This document shows positions 8,641-44,861 of a stretch of DNA of 64,000 nucleotides, piece after piece. The DNA lies in the sequence record MW679410.1. The stretch is one strand, 5' to 3'. The translations under genes and the position numbers were made by a program. Under the pieces are notes generated by a model, which was not told where the DNA came from, made no database searches, and was given only the letters and a program-made list of their open reading frames with translations. Positions within the stretch are counted from its first letter, which is position 1. Each line of letters begins with the position of its first letter. Source of the DNA: Escherichia phage C6.

Positions 8641-8669
8641 ACTATAACACGTGAGGAGAGGAAGTAAAC
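8641..8669 (-). promoter_or_regulatory. T4 early-type promoter with inverted repeat that can pair with the downstream SD
   Basis: Minus strand GTTTAC, 17-nt spacer, TATAGT; CTCCTCACGTGTT in spacer is complementary to AACACATGAGGAG at the SD. Confidence 0.5.
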
Positions 8670-9598: not shown

Positions 9599-10072
9599 TC
9601 ATTTAAGCGATTTCCTCAGTTGTTTTTTGAATGAATCCACCATTTGTTTCTTAGTGGCAGATTCATTATAAGTCATTCCGTGTGAAAGCATTTCAGCAAT
9701 CATTTCTTCCTTACCTAACCTGCTGAACTCTTTGGTTTTATCAGGAACGAAATTAGGATGAATATTGTTTTCAGTATAATCAGCTTTCAGATAGACCAGC
9801 AAATTCTCTAACCATTCGAGGTAGTCAACGTTTTGACCTTTAAGACCAGAACGGTTGAACTTATGCTTCATTTGTCCTTCTGCTGCATTGCACAGGTTAC
9901 ATAGTAAACCACGAACCTTACCGGCTTTTGGCCCGTTTAACTCGTGGTCGTGGTCAAGGTGGTTACTTTGAACATCAGGGTTTAATTCACGTTTACAAAT
10001 CAAACACTTACCACATTGTGCATCATAAAGTTTTTGTTTTTCTTCTTTGTATAATTTGCCGGTCAACAACAT
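9599..10072 (-). CDS. 49: Endonuclease VII (Holliday junction resolvase) gp49
   Basis: 157 aa, same length as T4 gp49; near-identical to recalled T4 sequence (MLLTGKLYKEEKQK..NHLDHDHELNGPKAGKVRGLLCNLCNAAEGQMKHKFNRSGLKGQ). Confidence 0.95.
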   Translation of the reverse strand: MLLTGKLYKEEKQKLYDAQCGKCLICKRELNPDVQSNHLDHDHELNGPKAGKVRGLLCNLCNAAEGQMKHKFNRSGLKGQNVDYLEWLENLLVYLKADYTENNIHPNFVPDKTKEFSRLGKEEMIAEMLSHGMTYNESATKKQMVDSFKKQLRKSLK

Positions 10073-10079
10073 AATAAAC

Positions 10080-10112
10080 CCTTACCATTATTAGATAAGG
10101 GTATTTATTAAT
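10080..10112 (-). promoter_or_regulatory. Hairpin over the gene 49 translation initiation region with adjacent late-promoter-like AATAAATA
   Basis: Minus strand TAATAAATA-CCCTTA-loop-TAAGGG-TTTATT-ATG; matches known T4 gene 49 arrangement. Confidence 0.35.
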
Positions 10113-15751: not shown

Positions 15752-15780
15752 ATAGTATCATTTCTGCCGGAGATGTAAAC
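15752..15780 (-). promoter_or_regulatory. T4 early-type promoter
   Basis: Minus strand GTTTAC, 17-nt spacer, TGATACTAT extended -10. Confidence 0.6.
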
Positions 15781-24070: not shown

Positions 24071-24610
24071 TTAATATACCGCCTCAAACATCTTTTTAGA
24101 TTTTAGGTAATTGGCCTTTTCTAGAACTTCAGAAGCATATTTACTGCCTGCTTTGACGTTCCAGCCCGCATTATAAGAAGCAATCGCTTTTCTCAGGTCA
24201 CCTTTGTGAACATCAATCCAATAAGACAGTTCAATGTAGGCCCAAGAGGCACTGTTCTGTCGTTTTTGGACCATACGAATTATTTCTTTGTCAGACATCT
24301 TCCAACCTACCTGTTGAACACGACTTCTTAACGTAGGCAAGTAATTTTGGAACATGCCATAAGCATGGTGCTTATCTTTATTTAAACCTTGATTAATTCC
24401 GGCGGATGATTCCTGCCATAGTAATCCGGCCATGATATATCCTAATCCTTTTTGATTAGGGTTTTCTTTGAACTTTCCCGACTTTTGGTATTGTTCACCG
24501 AAAGCATACGCATAATGTAAATTATCGAGTTGTTCATTACTGAAAGTAGGCTCTACGCTATGGGCAGACATACTAACTGTCAATAGTAAAGTGGCTAATA
24601 CTTTTTTCAT
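24071..24610 (-). CDS. Secreted lytic transglycosylase (SLT domain)
   Basis: 179 aa; signal peptide MKKVLATLLLTVSMSAHS; SLT motifs ES...AYGMFQ and SYNAG. Confidence 0.6.
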   Translation of the reverse strand: MKKVLATLLLTVSMSAHSVEPTFSNEQLDNLHYAYAFGEQYQKSGKFKENPNQKGLGYIMAGLLWQESSAGINQGLNKDKHHAYGMFQNYLPTLRSRVQQVGWKMSDKEIIRMVQKRQNSASWAYIELSYWIDVHKGDLRKAIASYNAGWNVKAGSKYASEVLEKANYLKSKKMFEAVY

Positions 24611-24622
24611 GAGACCTCATTA

Positions 24623-25081
24623 TTAAAGATAGATTACTTTAGTGCTTGTTTTACCTTCTAAACGTTTAGAGTTAACAAATGCCATACGGCATTTAAGGGA
24701 ATATCCTTTATCAGGATGTTTACGGTCTACTGTCATACCTAGCCATAAGGTTTTATCGGTAATTTCGAGACGCAATGGACGATACACTTTACCAGGGACA
24801 ATTTCAGATTCTACATCAGGCAGAGGTTCCTGGATTAAGAATTCATGGATTTCTTTAACATGGTTATGGAGTTGCTTGAATAAAGCAAAAACGTATTTTT
24901 CGTCGATTTCACGTTGGATAGCACGGTCCAACAAATGATTAGAGTACTTAATAAAGAAGGCTGGGACTCCGCTCTTAATGGCGGCTTTTTTGATGGACGC
25001 ATTCAGTTCACGGAATTCGGTTTCGAACTGACGACGTAATTTGTTGCGGCGGATGAATACTTCTGAATTAATTTCTGACAT
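24623..25081 (-). CDS. regB: RegB site-specific endoribonuclease
   Basis: 152 aa; strong match to recalled T4 RegB (EVFIRRNKLRR.FE.EFR...HLLDRAIQREIDE.YVF). Confidence 0.9.
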   Translation of the reverse strand: MSEINSEVFIRRNKLRRQFETEFRELNASIKKAAIKSGVPAFFIKYSNHLLDRAIQREIDEKYVFALFKQLHNHVKEIHEFLIQEPLPDVESEIVPGKVYRPLRLEITDKTLWLGMTVDRKHPDKGYSLKCRMAFVNSKRLEGKTSTKVIYL

Positions 25082-25109
25082 TTTGTAATCTCCTGTAGTT
25101 GATAGGTTT

Positions 25110-25138
25110 ATAGTATCATGTCTACAGGAGATGTAAAC
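25110..25138 (-). promoter_or_regulatory. T4 early-type promoter upstream of regB, with spacer/SD inverted repeat
   Basis: Minus strand GTTTAC, 17-nt spacer, TGATACTAT; 9-bp CTCCTGTAG in spacer is the perfect complement of CTACAGGAG at the regB SD. Confidence 0.6.
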
Positions 25139-25142
25139 TGCT

Positions 25143-25394
25143 TTATTCTTGGAATGGGGTAAGTTTTCCAGCAGCTGAACAAATTTCTACCAGTACAGGG
25201 TAAAACTCTTTCACTTGTTCAAGGCGTTGGGCGGCATACTGTACTTCGCCTTCTTCGAGACAAGCCAATTGGTCGTCAAGCAAGTATTTGTGGTAACCAG
25301 TACAGGCTTCACCGACGATACGCTGGAAATCTTGTAAACTTTCAATTTTCATCAGTATTTTTCCTCGGGTTGGAAAACGGAACGGCACGCCCAC
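25143..25394 (-). CDS. Hypothetical protein
   Basis: 83 aa. Confidence 0.45.
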   Translation of the reverse strand: MGVPFRFPTRGKILMKIESLQDFQRIVGEACTGYHKYLLDDQLACLEEGEVQYAAQRLEQVKEFYPVLVEICSAAGKLTPFQE

Positions 25395-25630
25395 ATGCTT
25401 GCTTCTTTCAAGCGTTCGATTGCTGTACGAATCTGGGCTAGGCGTTCATGGGTGAGGTTAAATTCTTCATCACTCATTTTATCAACACCCGAGCATGTAA
25501 AGGCTTCAACATATTCTTCTTCCAAGGCTTTAAAGATTAACCCCAATCGAACTTCAGCATCTTTAATCGCATTCACTTTACTGATTTTGTCGTCGGTATG
25601 CGGTTTGTAACCCTTGATATCTTCAATCAT
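25352..25630 (-). CDS. Hypothetical helical protein
   Basis: 92 aa; in the vs.3-vs.8 equivalent interval. Confidence 0.45.
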   Translation of the reverse strand: MIEDIKGYKPHTDDKISKVNAIKDAEVRLGLIFKALEEEYVEAFTCSGVDKMSDEEFNLTHERLAQIRTAIERLKEASMWACRSVFQPEEKY

Positions 25631-27144: not shown

Positions 27145-27174
27145 ATTCTATCACGGATTTAATTAAGCGTAAAT
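27145..27174 (-). promoter_or_regulatory. Candidate early promoter
   Basis: Minus strand ATTTAC, 18-nt spacer, TAGAAT. Confidence 0.35.
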
Positions 27175-27579
27175 AGCCTTGCCATAATGTTTGTACCAGG
27201 TAGGACGCTGTGCAATTTTTTCGTCCAAACGGGCCTGAGATATAGCAATAGAAGCTTCGTGTGGAGTATAGTCACCACGGAATTCCTGAGGAATATCACT
27301 AATGTCCTGGACCGTAGTATCCTTGATATTAAAACCACGTTTTAAACATTCCGCTATAAGCTCGATTTGACGTTTACGTAAAAATTCAAGCTTATCATAA
27401 AAGAAAGTAACATGGCCGGTACCAAGGATAAAAGTAGAGCTAATTTTAAAATCACGAACACGTTTACCATTAGCAACATGCTTACGAACTGCACCGAAAA
27501 CACGTGGTAATTCGCGATATTCAGCCATTAAGTGTTGGTCGGCCAATTCAGATACTAAGGTAAGGTTAATACGAGTCAT
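27163..27579 (-). CDS. denV: Endonuclease V (pyrimidine-dimer DNA glycosylase) DenV
   Basis: Start trimmed to MTRINL (138 aa); near-identical to recalled T4 DenV. Confidence 0.95.
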
Positions 27580-27639
27580 TTTAGTGTTCTCCATGTTTGT
27601 GTGAGAACACTATATCACAGCTATTGTAAAAGTAAACTG

Positions 27640-29061: not shown

Positions 29062-29542
29062 ATGCTTTCCAAGTACCTGTTTTAAATGTAGAAATCACGC
29101 GCTTAGCACGATTAGGAGTTTGTCTATACCAACGAGATTGGGCCAGGTTAACTGCCGCATCGTCCCAACGTTTCTGTTGGAGCATACGTAAAGAGTTAGT
29201 GAACCCGGCTACACCTGCTTCACCCATCTGGAAGACCATGTTAATTAAAGCACAACGACGAACTTCGTCCAGCACATCATAAACAGGTTTCAATTTAGGA
29301 TTACGCAGAATAGCTCTACGAGCATTTTCAACCGATCGGTTAAAGAGTTGCTCAGCTTCAGCCATAGTAATACGGCCATTACAAACCCGGCCCATAAGCT
29401 TATCAAGTTCAGCGCGAGCAACATCTTTAGATGGGTTCTTGGTAACCAACTGACCAATCCCAATAGTCCAATAACCTTCGGTGTCTTTATAAAGATTTAA
29501 ATCAAGACCTTCGTCTTGACGTAACATATCAAAAATATCCAT
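29048..29542 (-). CDS. e: Lysozyme (endolysin) gene e
   Basis: 164 aa, same as T4 lysozyme; extensive identity to recalled T4L (IFEMLR.DEGL.L.IYKDTEGY.TIGIG...[32 protein letters not shown]). Confidence 0.97.
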
Positions 29543-29572
29543 AATACCTCCTGAGTATAGGAGGTATTTATA
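29543..29572 (-). promoter_or_regulatory. Gene e hairpin sequestering the SD, with embedded late promoter TATAAATA
   Basis: 10-bp inverted repeat AATACCTCCT/AGGAGGTATT includes the SD; minus-strand TATAAATA overlaps the 5' arm; known T4 gene e arrangement. Confidence 0.7.
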
Positions 29573-30260: not shown

Positions 30261-30835
30261 TCCTCAATAAAGGAGTTCAATGTATTTTTCTTGGTGTTAT
30301 CATCATATACCTTTTTAACTTTAGAAATACGAAAAGGTACTTCGATAACCGAGGTCCATAAAAATGATGCAATAAGACCCGAGATAGCTGCAGACATCGC
30401 TGAAGCAAATACACAAATAGGCAGGTCATTATCTGTTGTCAGGAAAAACCAAAGGAGTGGAAAAAATAATATTCCCATCCAAACATAGAACCTAGAACTC
30501 ACTAATTTGTCATATTCGTCACTCCATGCACGAAAGCCGTATTTTTTGCTATAACAAATCAATGGGTCAGGTGTCTGTTCTTTGAGCGGTTCTGGTTGCC
30601 AACCGTTTACAATATAGCCCATTTTATATTCCTCAATTAAAAGCCGTTTCATTTCAGCAGTACAACCTGACCAATCTATCGTACTAGCTGGAATTCCTTC
30701 ATCACCATCATCAATATTTCGCCAGGACTTTTTAATAATCATATGCTCACCACTTGGGATAATAATTCCGGCATTTTCCGACCGACGGATGAAGTTTGTA
30801 TCAATGCCCATACACCCGGGTTCATAAAGGGCCAT
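30248..30835 (-). CDS. Membrane protein
   Basis: 195 aa; hydrophobic helices in C-terminal half. Confidence 0.5.
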   Translation of the reverse strand: MALYEPGCMGIDTNFIRRSENAGIIIPSGEHMIIKKSWRNIDDGDEGIPASTIDWSGCTAEMKRLLIEEYKMGYIVNGWQPEPLKEQTPDPLICYSKKYGFRAWSDEYDKLVSSRFYVWMGILFFPLLWFFLTTDNDLPICVFASAMSAAISGLIASFLWTSVIEVPFRISKVKKVYDDNTKKNTLNSFIEECRK

Positions 30836-36785: not shown

Positions 36786-36969
36786 ACATGGCAGCCCAAT
36801 CAGTTTTTGCCAAGTTGAAAGTAAGAGCTTTCTCTAATTCTTTGGCAGCTTTTTGTTGTTCAGGTGTTAATGAATTATACAACTCTTGCATTTCTTTATC
36901 TTCGATATTCATTATGTTCTCCTCAAATTACGGGCTCATAATATCTTAATCATGAGCCCATGTAAACTT

Positions 36970-39338: not shown

Positions 39339-39616
39339 ATATTAATGTAATCAAGTTTAATAGAAGCAATCTTCAAAGGATTTTTAAATATGTCATATTC
39401 GACCAATCCGTTTTCAGTTGCGGTATAAAAAGTAAAGTTAACAGAATTATAACGATGGCTGTTAACTTTGAGTTTAACATCACTTGAACTACGGCCAATA
39501 TTAACCTGTTGAACATCAAGCACAGCATCTTTGCCGTAATTTCGAATCAACAACTCGGCTGCAACCTGATCGGATTTATAGCCATTCTCTGGATTAGTAA
39601 CCTTAACGTATAGCAT
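39326..39616 (-). CDS. Hypothetical protein
   Basis: 96 aa. Confidence 0.5.
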   Translation of the reverse strand: MLYVKVTNPENGYKSDQVAAELLIRNYGKDAVLDVQQVNIGRSSSDVKLKVNSHRYNSVNFTFYTATENGLVEYDIFKNPLKIASIKLDYINMWPQ

Positions 39617-44415: not shown

Positions 44416-44861
44416 CCTTTCCATCCTAATTTTTTCAGTGAATGTTCGGTAATCAATCTAAAGGTGATACCCATTTTATCTGCTGTAGCTTTAGCTGCTT
44501 TCCACTTATCAGTATTAACAGACCAAGTATAATGTTCGTTGATATATCTCTTTTTAGCAGCTGTAGTCATTTTAACAGGCACCGCAGGAGCATGGGTTTC
44601 TTTAAAAGGTTTGACTTCAAAAAAGAATTGTTGGCCTGTATCAAATTTAACCCAGAAGTCCATAAAATATCGTCTTTTCTTTCCTTCGGCATTGCAAAAG
44701 TATGGGATAACCACCTCTTCTGAATTCCACTGGACTACATTAGGATGGTTGTCAAGCCAACGCATAAACCATGCTTCCCAAGAGGAACGATATTGGATTT
44801 TCTTCCAATCACCTTTATATTTTTGTAAGTTTGTAGGTTTAAATTTCCCTGAGTAAGCCAT
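44412..44861 (-). CDS. 4: Head completion protein gp4
   Basis: 149 aa (T4 gp4 about 150 aa); divergent to gene 53. Confidence 0.8.

Follow-up and report, generated by a model that had tools for sequence, protein, structure and literature searches.

The toxin-like RNase RegB shuts down the early messages of the phage, and the limits on its level have so far been attributed to shut-off of its promoter and to self-cleavage at its Shine-Dalgarno sequence (SD). In T4, regB is served by a promoter of the usual early kind, which is active and is shut off at 2-3 min, RegB cuts the GGAG in its own SD, and RegB synthesis is said to require tight control (PMC3014915). In the JS98-like (Dhakavirus) T4-type phage analyzed here, whose early genes are carried on the minus strand, one arm of an inverted repeat lies inside the regB promoter and the other contains the regB SD. 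The question raised by this locus is whether the repeat sorts regB transcripts by their point of initiation, so that the SD is folded in RNA arriving from upstream and free in RNA made from the regB promoter.

The regB locus and the inverted repeat in its promoter

Within the window (the whole 64-kb stretch of DNA that was analyzed), the regB coding sequence occupies 24623-25081 on the minus strand (152 aa plus stop, ATG at 25081). Its product belongs to the family described by Pfam PF10715, which it matched at 231.6 bits against a curated cut-off of 27, and to PHROG 1323, annotated as endoribonuclease; Salmonella phage SHP1 and phage IME341 match the regB region at 98-99% identity. Downstream of regB comes a vs.1-like ORF, and the vs.3 position upstream is taken by an ORF of 69 aa (25143-25352, minus strand; PHROG 2037, no assigned function) with a TAA stop at 25145-25143, 10 nt ahead of the 5' arm of the repeat. 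A terminator scan found no terminator-like site between this upstream ORF and regB, and a promoter scan placed early promoter-like sites upstream of regB at 27173, 27636 and 28661. Transcripts covering the vs.3-position ORF are therefore predicted to run on into regB; we infer that this read-through RNA exists because no terminator is predicted upstream.

The minus-strand intergenic layout is TAA-agca-GTTTACA-TCTCCTGTAG-acaTGaTACTAT-aaaccta-tcaa-CTACAGGAGAT-tacaaa-ATG. In it, the promoter scan identified TTTACA (25137-25132), a spacer of 16 nt and TACTAT (25115-25110) preceded by TG, and the leading G before TTTACA gives the T4 early-promoter form (GTTTACA-16-TGnTACTAT). The -35 element GTTTACA of this T4-type early (sigma-70) promoter thus covers 25132-25138, and the TGn-extended -10, TGATACTAT, covers 25110-25118 and falls within the loop of the hairpin, both on the minus strand. 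The late-promoter motif TATAAATA is absent from 25088-25140. Sigma-70 promoters initiate 6-8 nt after the -10, and by this geometry transcription is predicted to start on the minus strand at an A at 25103 (+/- 2 nt), 7 nt past the -10, giving a leader of 22 nt that lacks the 5' arm.

A repeat finder returned a perfect 11-nt inverted repeat with plus-strand arms at 25088-25098 and 25122-25132, 23 nt apart. In minus-strand orientation, the 5' arm, or anti-SD, is AUCUCCUGUAG (25122-25132); it begins at the final base of the -35 hexamer TTTACA and lies inside the promoter spacer. The 3' arm is CUACAGGAGAU (25088-25098, minus strand) and contains the regB SD, a GGAG at 25093-25090 that stands 8 nt ahead of the ATG at 25081 and doubles as a putative RegB cleavage motif. 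A preliminary description of this DNA had reported a 9-nt spacer element as the exact reverse complement of an SD-containing element, which was true but understated in view of the full 11 nt, and had given the repeat as 25091-25140; the repeat is present there, but a start at 25091 drops 3 nt of the 3' arm. It had further held that transcripts of this promoter begin downstream of the 5' arm, and the geometry agrees, with ~19 nt separating the arm from the predicted start and no less than 19 nt from any plausible one. Given the position of the arm in the spacer and the geometry of sigma-70 promoters, the 5' arm should be absent from RNA of the regB promoter and transcribed only in RNAs begun upstream.

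The repeat alone, within a single window, is barely above chance and is not significant: the 64 kb contain 2 perfect inverted repeats with arms of 11 nt or more (loops of 3-40 nt), compared to an expectation of 0.77 from first-order Markov resamplings (sd 0.8, max 2). It was judged to be more than chance because of its placement and because of its conservation, with covariation, in other genera. A search with Rfam families over 24600-25600 gave no match at E <= 1. The other perfect 11-nt short-loop repeat of the window lies at 39434-39469 (AAAGTTAACAG / CTGTTAACTTT, 14-nt loop).

Predicted folding of read-through and promoter-initiated RNA

The preliminary description had proposed that read-through transcripts fold the SD into a hairpin and that transcripts initiated at the regB promoter leave it free, and predicted folding supported both proposals. 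For a 101-nt RNA across the region the predicted energy was -19.8 kcal/mol (z = -4.1, 0/200 shuffles as good), and the helix was present in both the minimum free energy (MFE) structure and the centroid of this RNA and of a 239-nt read-through RNA. RNA beginning at the predicted start, 25103, was unstructured (-4.6 kcal/mol, z = -0.1). The predicted cost of opening positions -16 to +3 of regB was 14.4 kcal/mol in the read-through RNA versus 4.5 kcal/mol in the promoter-initiated RNA, and the same subtraction gave 10-17 kcal/mol in T4, RB69, CF1, the S16-like phages, Q7622, CBH8 and MHG19. The corresponding T4 helix was likewise found in the MFE structure and the centroid of a 236-nt read-through RNA.

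Read-through opening costs were calculated for 81 minus-strand genes of the window, with a median of 6.0 kcal/mol and a 95th percentile of 14.0 kcal/mol; regB ranked fourth, gene e fifth (14.0 kcal/mol) and gene 49 seventh (13.5 kcal/mol). These two genes serve as comparators, and the arrangements that had been ascribed to them were both found in the sequence. At gene e (29544-29572, minus strand), the late promoter TATAAATA at 29572-29565 overlaps the 5' arm, and this arm, ATACCTCC, pairs with GGAGGTAT before the ATG at 29542. At gene 49 (10081-10110, minus strand), a late-promoter-like AATAAATA accompanies ACCCTTA/TAAGGGT before the ATG at 10072. That the same logic is established for T4 genes e and 49, as the preliminary description also held, is documented in a review (PMC3014915).

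The helix is also predicted to affect cleavage by RegB. The candidate cleavage site in the regB leader, GGAGAUUACAA, agrees with the consensus GGAGRAYARAA (PMC1702504) at 9/11 positions and is predicted to be single-stranded in the promoter-initiated isoform only. RegB requires a single-stranded 11-nt site containing GGA, secondary structure inhibits it, and T4 GGAGs within stable structures resist it (PMC1702504). It is thus conceivable that the helix mainly hides GGAG from RegB in the read-through RNA, preserving the message for vs.1, vs and tk.4, and that silencing of regB is a side effect. The match of GGAGAUUACAA to the consensus and the resistance of structured T4 GGAGs both suit this reading, as does the finding that all helix-bearing lineages have GGAG or GGAU within the helix. 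We consider it unlikely as the main role; it is compatible with a block to initiation and not exclusive of it, and the two are inseparable by sequence because one helix necessarily does both.

Complementary arms in other T4-like lineages

RegB homologues were found in 1,137 phage records, and regB upstream regions were collected from 81 loci, yielding 43 distinct sequences. The compact order of stop codon, GTTTAC promoter, SD and ATG is kept by nearly all Tevenvirinae, and the GTTTAC element precedes regB also in T4, RB69 and other phages; the T4 record NC_000866 annotates no promoter or start-site features. In most Tevenvirinae the SD region can pair with the stretch that directly follows the -35, with sequences that differ from lineage to lineage. 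Helices of 8-15 bp with different arms were found in T4 (UUUUCCUCUUGACUG / CAGUUAAGAGGAGAA, 15 bp including 2 G.U), RB69 (UUCUCCUCUAGUUG / CAACUAGAGGAGAA, 14 bp), the S16-like phages (UUUCUCCUCUUUAUG / CAUAAAGAGGAGAAA, 15 bp), Kanagawavirus (AUCUCCUUUUAGU / ACUAAAAGGAGAU, 13 bp), Moonvirus CF1 (UCUCCUGUAAGU / ACUUACAGGAGA, 12 bp), Winklervirus, where the SD is GAGG (AUCCUCAUUUG(UU) / (AA)CAAAUGAGGAU, 11-13 bp), and other lineages, among them MHG19 (UUUACUCCUUUGGUU / AAUCAAAGGAGUAAA, 15 bp including 1 G.U), Q7622 and Vettismorki (13 bp each) and CBH8 (11 bp). In CBH8 the SD is GAGG and its partner is the matching CCUC. Hairpin energies across the helix-bearing lineages ranged from -16 to -23 kcal/mol. 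Weak or broken helices were seen in Karamvirus, in Klebsiella phages and at two further collected loci (L065 and L016). An IUPAC scan of IMG/VR for more variants of the T4 group returned 5 identical contigs and no new variant.

Co-evolution of the arms was assessed without an alignment by pairing the promoter segment of each lineage (-35 to the predicted start) with the leader of every lineage (start to ATG+12). Own promoter and own leader paired at a mean of -16.6 kcal/mol versus -10.5 kcal/mol across lineages, with 0/200,000 permutations as low, and the own pairing was stronger than every cross pairing in 13 of the 19 lineage types. Cross-lineage pairings still reached about -11 kcal/mol because a CUCC/GGAG core is common to the lineages; the helices extend 4-10 bp past this core with genus-specific sequences. 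In an alignment anchored only on the CC:GG pair and fitted by one register per sequence, 76% of cells paired and both-side changes occurred in 11 of 15 pairs (47 cells), counts that depend on this anchoring because the helix register slides relative to the -35 and the ATG. The covariation score was 0.373, compared to 0.126 when shuffled (0/500) and 0.06-0.13 when the partner was slid by 1-3 columns. On a plain MAFFT alignment of the 19 leaders, RNAalifold found no consensus structure and the column-wise covariation was gone, a loss that follows from the sliding register; on an unfitted subset alignment it recovered 9 pairs, 3 of them with compensatory changes. The comparative evidence that pairing has been kept by compensatory change across many T4-like genera is strong, and such change argues for selection on structure.

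These results bear on two readings in which no RNA structure is at work. In the first, a pyrimidine-rich spacer (TCTCC) next to the -35 happens to complement a purine-rich SD, and the match is then perfected by quasipalindrome mutation and has no function. Templated mutation of this kind is known in T4 and could help to maintain the match between the arms without each pair being under selection. The near-chance occurrence of the repeat in the window accords with such a coincidence, as do the cross-lineage energies and the presence of CTCC or CCTC directly after the -35 in several other early promoters of the window. However, no permutation equalled the own-pairing sum, the helices run beyond the core with sequences of their own in each genus, and two lineages, described below, have re-made the sequestration with an unrelated 5' arm. 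Furthermore, among 19 early promoter/leader pairs of the window the strongest own pairing was that of regB, and the difference between own and cross pairings (p = 0.016 with regB) was lost when regB was left out (p = 0.12). Pairing as a general property of the early promoters of the window was therefore rejected, and the pairing at regB is not a by-product of early-promoter composition. Coincidence is already disfavoured on these grounds and is, in our estimate, very improbable.

The second reading places the element in the DNA, as a palindromic operator for a dimeric protein or as a cruciform that modulates the promoter. An inverted repeat is symmetric in double-stranded DNA, so the sequence does not tell which molecule folds, and an asymmetry between G.U and A.C mismatches that could point to the folded strand was not seen (3 vs 3). 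However, the arms differ in sequence between genera but remain complementary, the reverse of the pattern that a protein-binding site shows; the T4 helix relies on two G.U pairs, which are mismatches in DNA; and loops of 17-23 nt that carry the -10 would disfavour cruciform extrusion. We regard a DNA-level element as hardly probable at all.

Several lineages keep the regB initiation region apart from upstream transcription by other arrangements. The spacer carries no CUCC in Gaprivervirus (VR26, TH40) or in the L073/L074 lineage, where the -10 region (e.g. AGUUAUGAUUAUC) instead pairs with the SD, the AUG and codons 2-5 (1140-1215 of the VR26 locus, L027, and ~740-815 of L073). Their own pairings, -21.4 and -20.2 kcal/mol, each exceed all cross pairs in strength, and the 5' arm remains upstream of the start site. 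On these predicted pairings, VR26 and L073 represent an independent route to sequestration of the initiation region, and a helix that spans the AUG and codons 2-5 is needed for blocking initiation but not for hiding a GGA, which speaks against protection from RegB as the principal role. In the Aeromonas phages the anti-SD helix is missing (-5.8 kcal/mol), and a strong intrinsic terminator, GAUGGGCUCC-UAGG-AGCCCAUU followed by a U-run, lies directly upstream of the regB promoter (1114-1145 of L022, from Aeromonas phage 31, and likewise in L023 and L024). In Karamvirus and Klebsiella phages a short anti-SD occurs together with a GGGC..GCCC hairpin that covers the -10. RB49 has no private regB promoter. 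In the kv_tblp8-like Klebsiella phages (L006-L008 and L033), an 11-bp hairpin (GUGUAGGAGUA/UACUUCUACAC) spans the -10 of the regB promoter with a GGAG in its 5' arm and leaves the regB SD (GAGAGG) unpaired; this is the sole lineage whose promoter hairpin leaves the SD free, and it does not fit the model. With the kv_tblp8-like phages and RB49 as the exceptions, the regB initiation region is predicted to be insulated from upstream transcription by a helix or by a terminator, and this is the strongest argument for the proposed insulating function.

The Aeromonas terminators, which occupy the position corresponding to that of the helix, also raise the possibility that the stem-loop at regB is of the PeSL type. 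PeSLs, described in RB49 and phi1, are stem-loops with terminator activity that lie immediately ahead of the start, over the -10 or between it and the -35 (PMC2839356). The hairpin at regB would then be a terminator or attenuator of upstream transcription, or a recombination module, and its overlap with the SD would be incidental. The regB promoter region shares with PeSLs a compact cassette in the order stop codon, early promoter, stem-loop, SD and ATG, with the stem-loop inside the promoter; this is one of the features by which PeSL cassettes are defined (PMC2839356). Related cassettes also recur in the window, where GGGC..GCCC hairpins cover the -10 of other early promoters and the promoter at 15779 has long stretches identical to the regB cassette. 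However, an intrinsic terminator at regB was ruled out: the 3' arm is followed by UACAAAAUG, a U-run is missing downstream both here and in T4, and the terminator scan was negative in both. The stem, AUCUCCUGUAG, is not of the G-tract/C-tract type either. Moreover, PeSL stems are confined to the promoter and are read as terminators or recombination sites, whereas the 3' arm at regB is the SD, with a partner that co-evolves with the leader. The 3' arm coincides with the initiation region in 13 lineage types, even where the 5' arm has moved to the -10, and an incidental overlap does not predict this. A PeSL at regB is, in our view, quite improbable.

A model for regB and related hairpins

The reading that we favour, and hold to be reasonably probable on the predicted folds and the comparison of lineages, is that the hairpin forms in the read-through isoform only, so that translation of regB and self-cleavage of its message would be limited to RNA from its own promoter. 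Promoter-dependent translational gating had been suggested in the preliminary description, and the predicted folds together with compensatory change across T4-like genera support it. RNAs from upstream promoters, running through the genes on the vs.3 side, would carry both arms; the 11-bp helix (about -19 kcal/mol with the loop) would bury the regB GGAG, ribosomes would fail to initiate, and RegB could not cut the GGAG within the helix because it needs a single-stranded GGA. RNAs from the regB promoter would carry a free 22-nt leader that is translated and open to RegB self-cleavage. RegB synthesis would in this way be tied to the immediate-early promoter and insulated from transcription arriving from upstream, presumably with the purpose of limiting a toxic RNase to an early burst, and the short early transcript of regB is probably the only source of the protein. 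Translational coupling to regB, by which a terminating upstream ribosome would melt the helix, is unlikely since the upstream stop, 10 nt before the 5' arm, would be too distant to melt it. A helix of this stability over the SD blocks 30S binding, as shown at T4 gene e (PMC3014915), and we infer that in vivo the regB helix would prevent both initiation and cleavage. Since the transcripts from upstream are early too, the benefit is less obvious than for late genes.

If true, the model would explain why regB has kept a private promoter when the upstream gene lies only ~60 nt away, would add a third layer to the limits on RegB level, and would extend the T4 promoter-inside-hairpin design from late to early promoters. 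It would also provide a sequence rule for reading promoter-leader pairs in many unannotated T4-like genomes. Inhibitory structures over the initiation region in upstream-initiated transcripts have been described for T4 e, soc, 49 and I-TevI, and also for segB and Aeh1 mobE (PMC3014915). regB is not among the hairpin-gated genes given in that review, and the regB hairpin is not mentioned in the accessible reviews and papers; an earlier mention may exist in Sanson & Uzan 1993, Piesiniene 2004 or Miller 2003. Hairpin gating of T4 e, soc, 49 and I-TevI is thus known; what is new here is that the gene is early, that the anti-SD is encoded by the spacer of an early sigma-70 promoter, and that the sequestered motif is the site at which the gene's own product cleaves. 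The regB case introduces no new principle but carries a classic T4 mechanism over, in testable form, to the regulation of a toxic RNase.

One of the closest likenesses is to T4 gene e. In both, a promoter whose RNAs omit the 5' arm lies at or downstream of that arm, the SD forms the 3' arm, folding is confined to the long RNAs, and the structure is kept in close relatives; the predicted opening costs in the window are also comparable. However, the gene e promoter is late (TATAAATA) and delays expression, whereas the regB promoter is an early sigma-70 promoter that encodes the arm in its spacer, and the effect at regB is likely the opposite, with expression confined to the first minutes. At 23 nt, the regB loop is also long, and it carries the -10. 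Isoform-dependent translation is the logic shared with 49, soc and I-TevI, as well as segB and Aeh1 mobE, but these are late or homing-endonuclease genes, whereas regB is immediate-early and its product cuts the sequestered motif. Of the features that mark the class of e, soc, 49 and I-TevI, regB thus has the SD helix, a promoter whose RNA is free of the arm, and conservation, but it does not have the late promoter. The hairpin also shares with RegB autoregulation the same gene, the same GGAG SD and an early promoter kept in T4-related phages. The known control, however, is cleavage in trans by the protein, whereas the hairpin is a cis RNA structure that, unlike self-cleavage, would decide which transcripts face translation and cleavage.

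An arrangement resembling that of regB was seen at three more genes of the window. At 8668-8609 (minus strand), the spacer UCUCCUCA of the early promoter GTTTACTTCCTCTCCTCACGTGTTATAGT pairs with the SD UGAGGAGA; this promoter serves a 60-aa ORF (8611-8429, PHROG 2283) with the same design as regB and an opening cost of 18.4 kcal/mol, the second highest of the 81 genes. At 15779-15723 (minus strand), a cassette nearly copies that of regB (GTTTACATCTCC...ATGATACTATAGACCTATCAACTAC), with a partial anti-SD (AUCUCCGG/CUGGAGGU) ahead of a 174-aa ORF (PHROG 2274); the likeness of the two sequences suggests duplicated or shuffled early-promoter cassettes. At denV (ATG at 27579; 27636-27577, minus strand), the GGAG SD is covered by a helix (GUGUUCUC/GGAGAACAC) whose 5' arm overlaps the early promoter at 27636 in its -10/start region. 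The GGAG of T4 denV was the contrast substrate to the efficiently cleaved motB in sequence-swap constructs (PMC1702504). A broader and rather doubtful extension of the model is that the regB hairpin sorts isoforms in the service of RegB self-control. RNA of the regB promoter would be translated and cut by RegB in a self-limiting burst, the read-through RNA would be blind at this site to ribosomes and RegB alike, with its downstream genes shielded from decay triggered by RegB, and the recurrence of the design at 8668, 15779 and denV would mark translational insulators of a general class, set between stacked early transcription units in T4-like phages.

Other hairpins of the window lie over late promoters or over the -10 of early ones. 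A gene 4-like head-closure gene (ATG at 44861; ~44920-44859, minus strand) has the late promoter TATAAATA inside a GCCUCC...GGAGGC hairpin that buries the SD; with an opening cost of 19.3 kcal/mol, the highest in the window, it looks like another late-promoter-in-hairpin case of the e/49 kind, as far as predicted structure can indicate. At 30835 the PHROG match begins only at residue 32, so the high opening cost there is probably an artefact that stems from a mis-called start. PeSL-like GGGC..GCCC (or GGACC/GGTCC) hairpins lie across the -10 of the early promoters at 36966, 40249, 7540 and 36508 (minus strand), and the block ATGATACTATAGACCTATCAA is common to many early promoters of the window.
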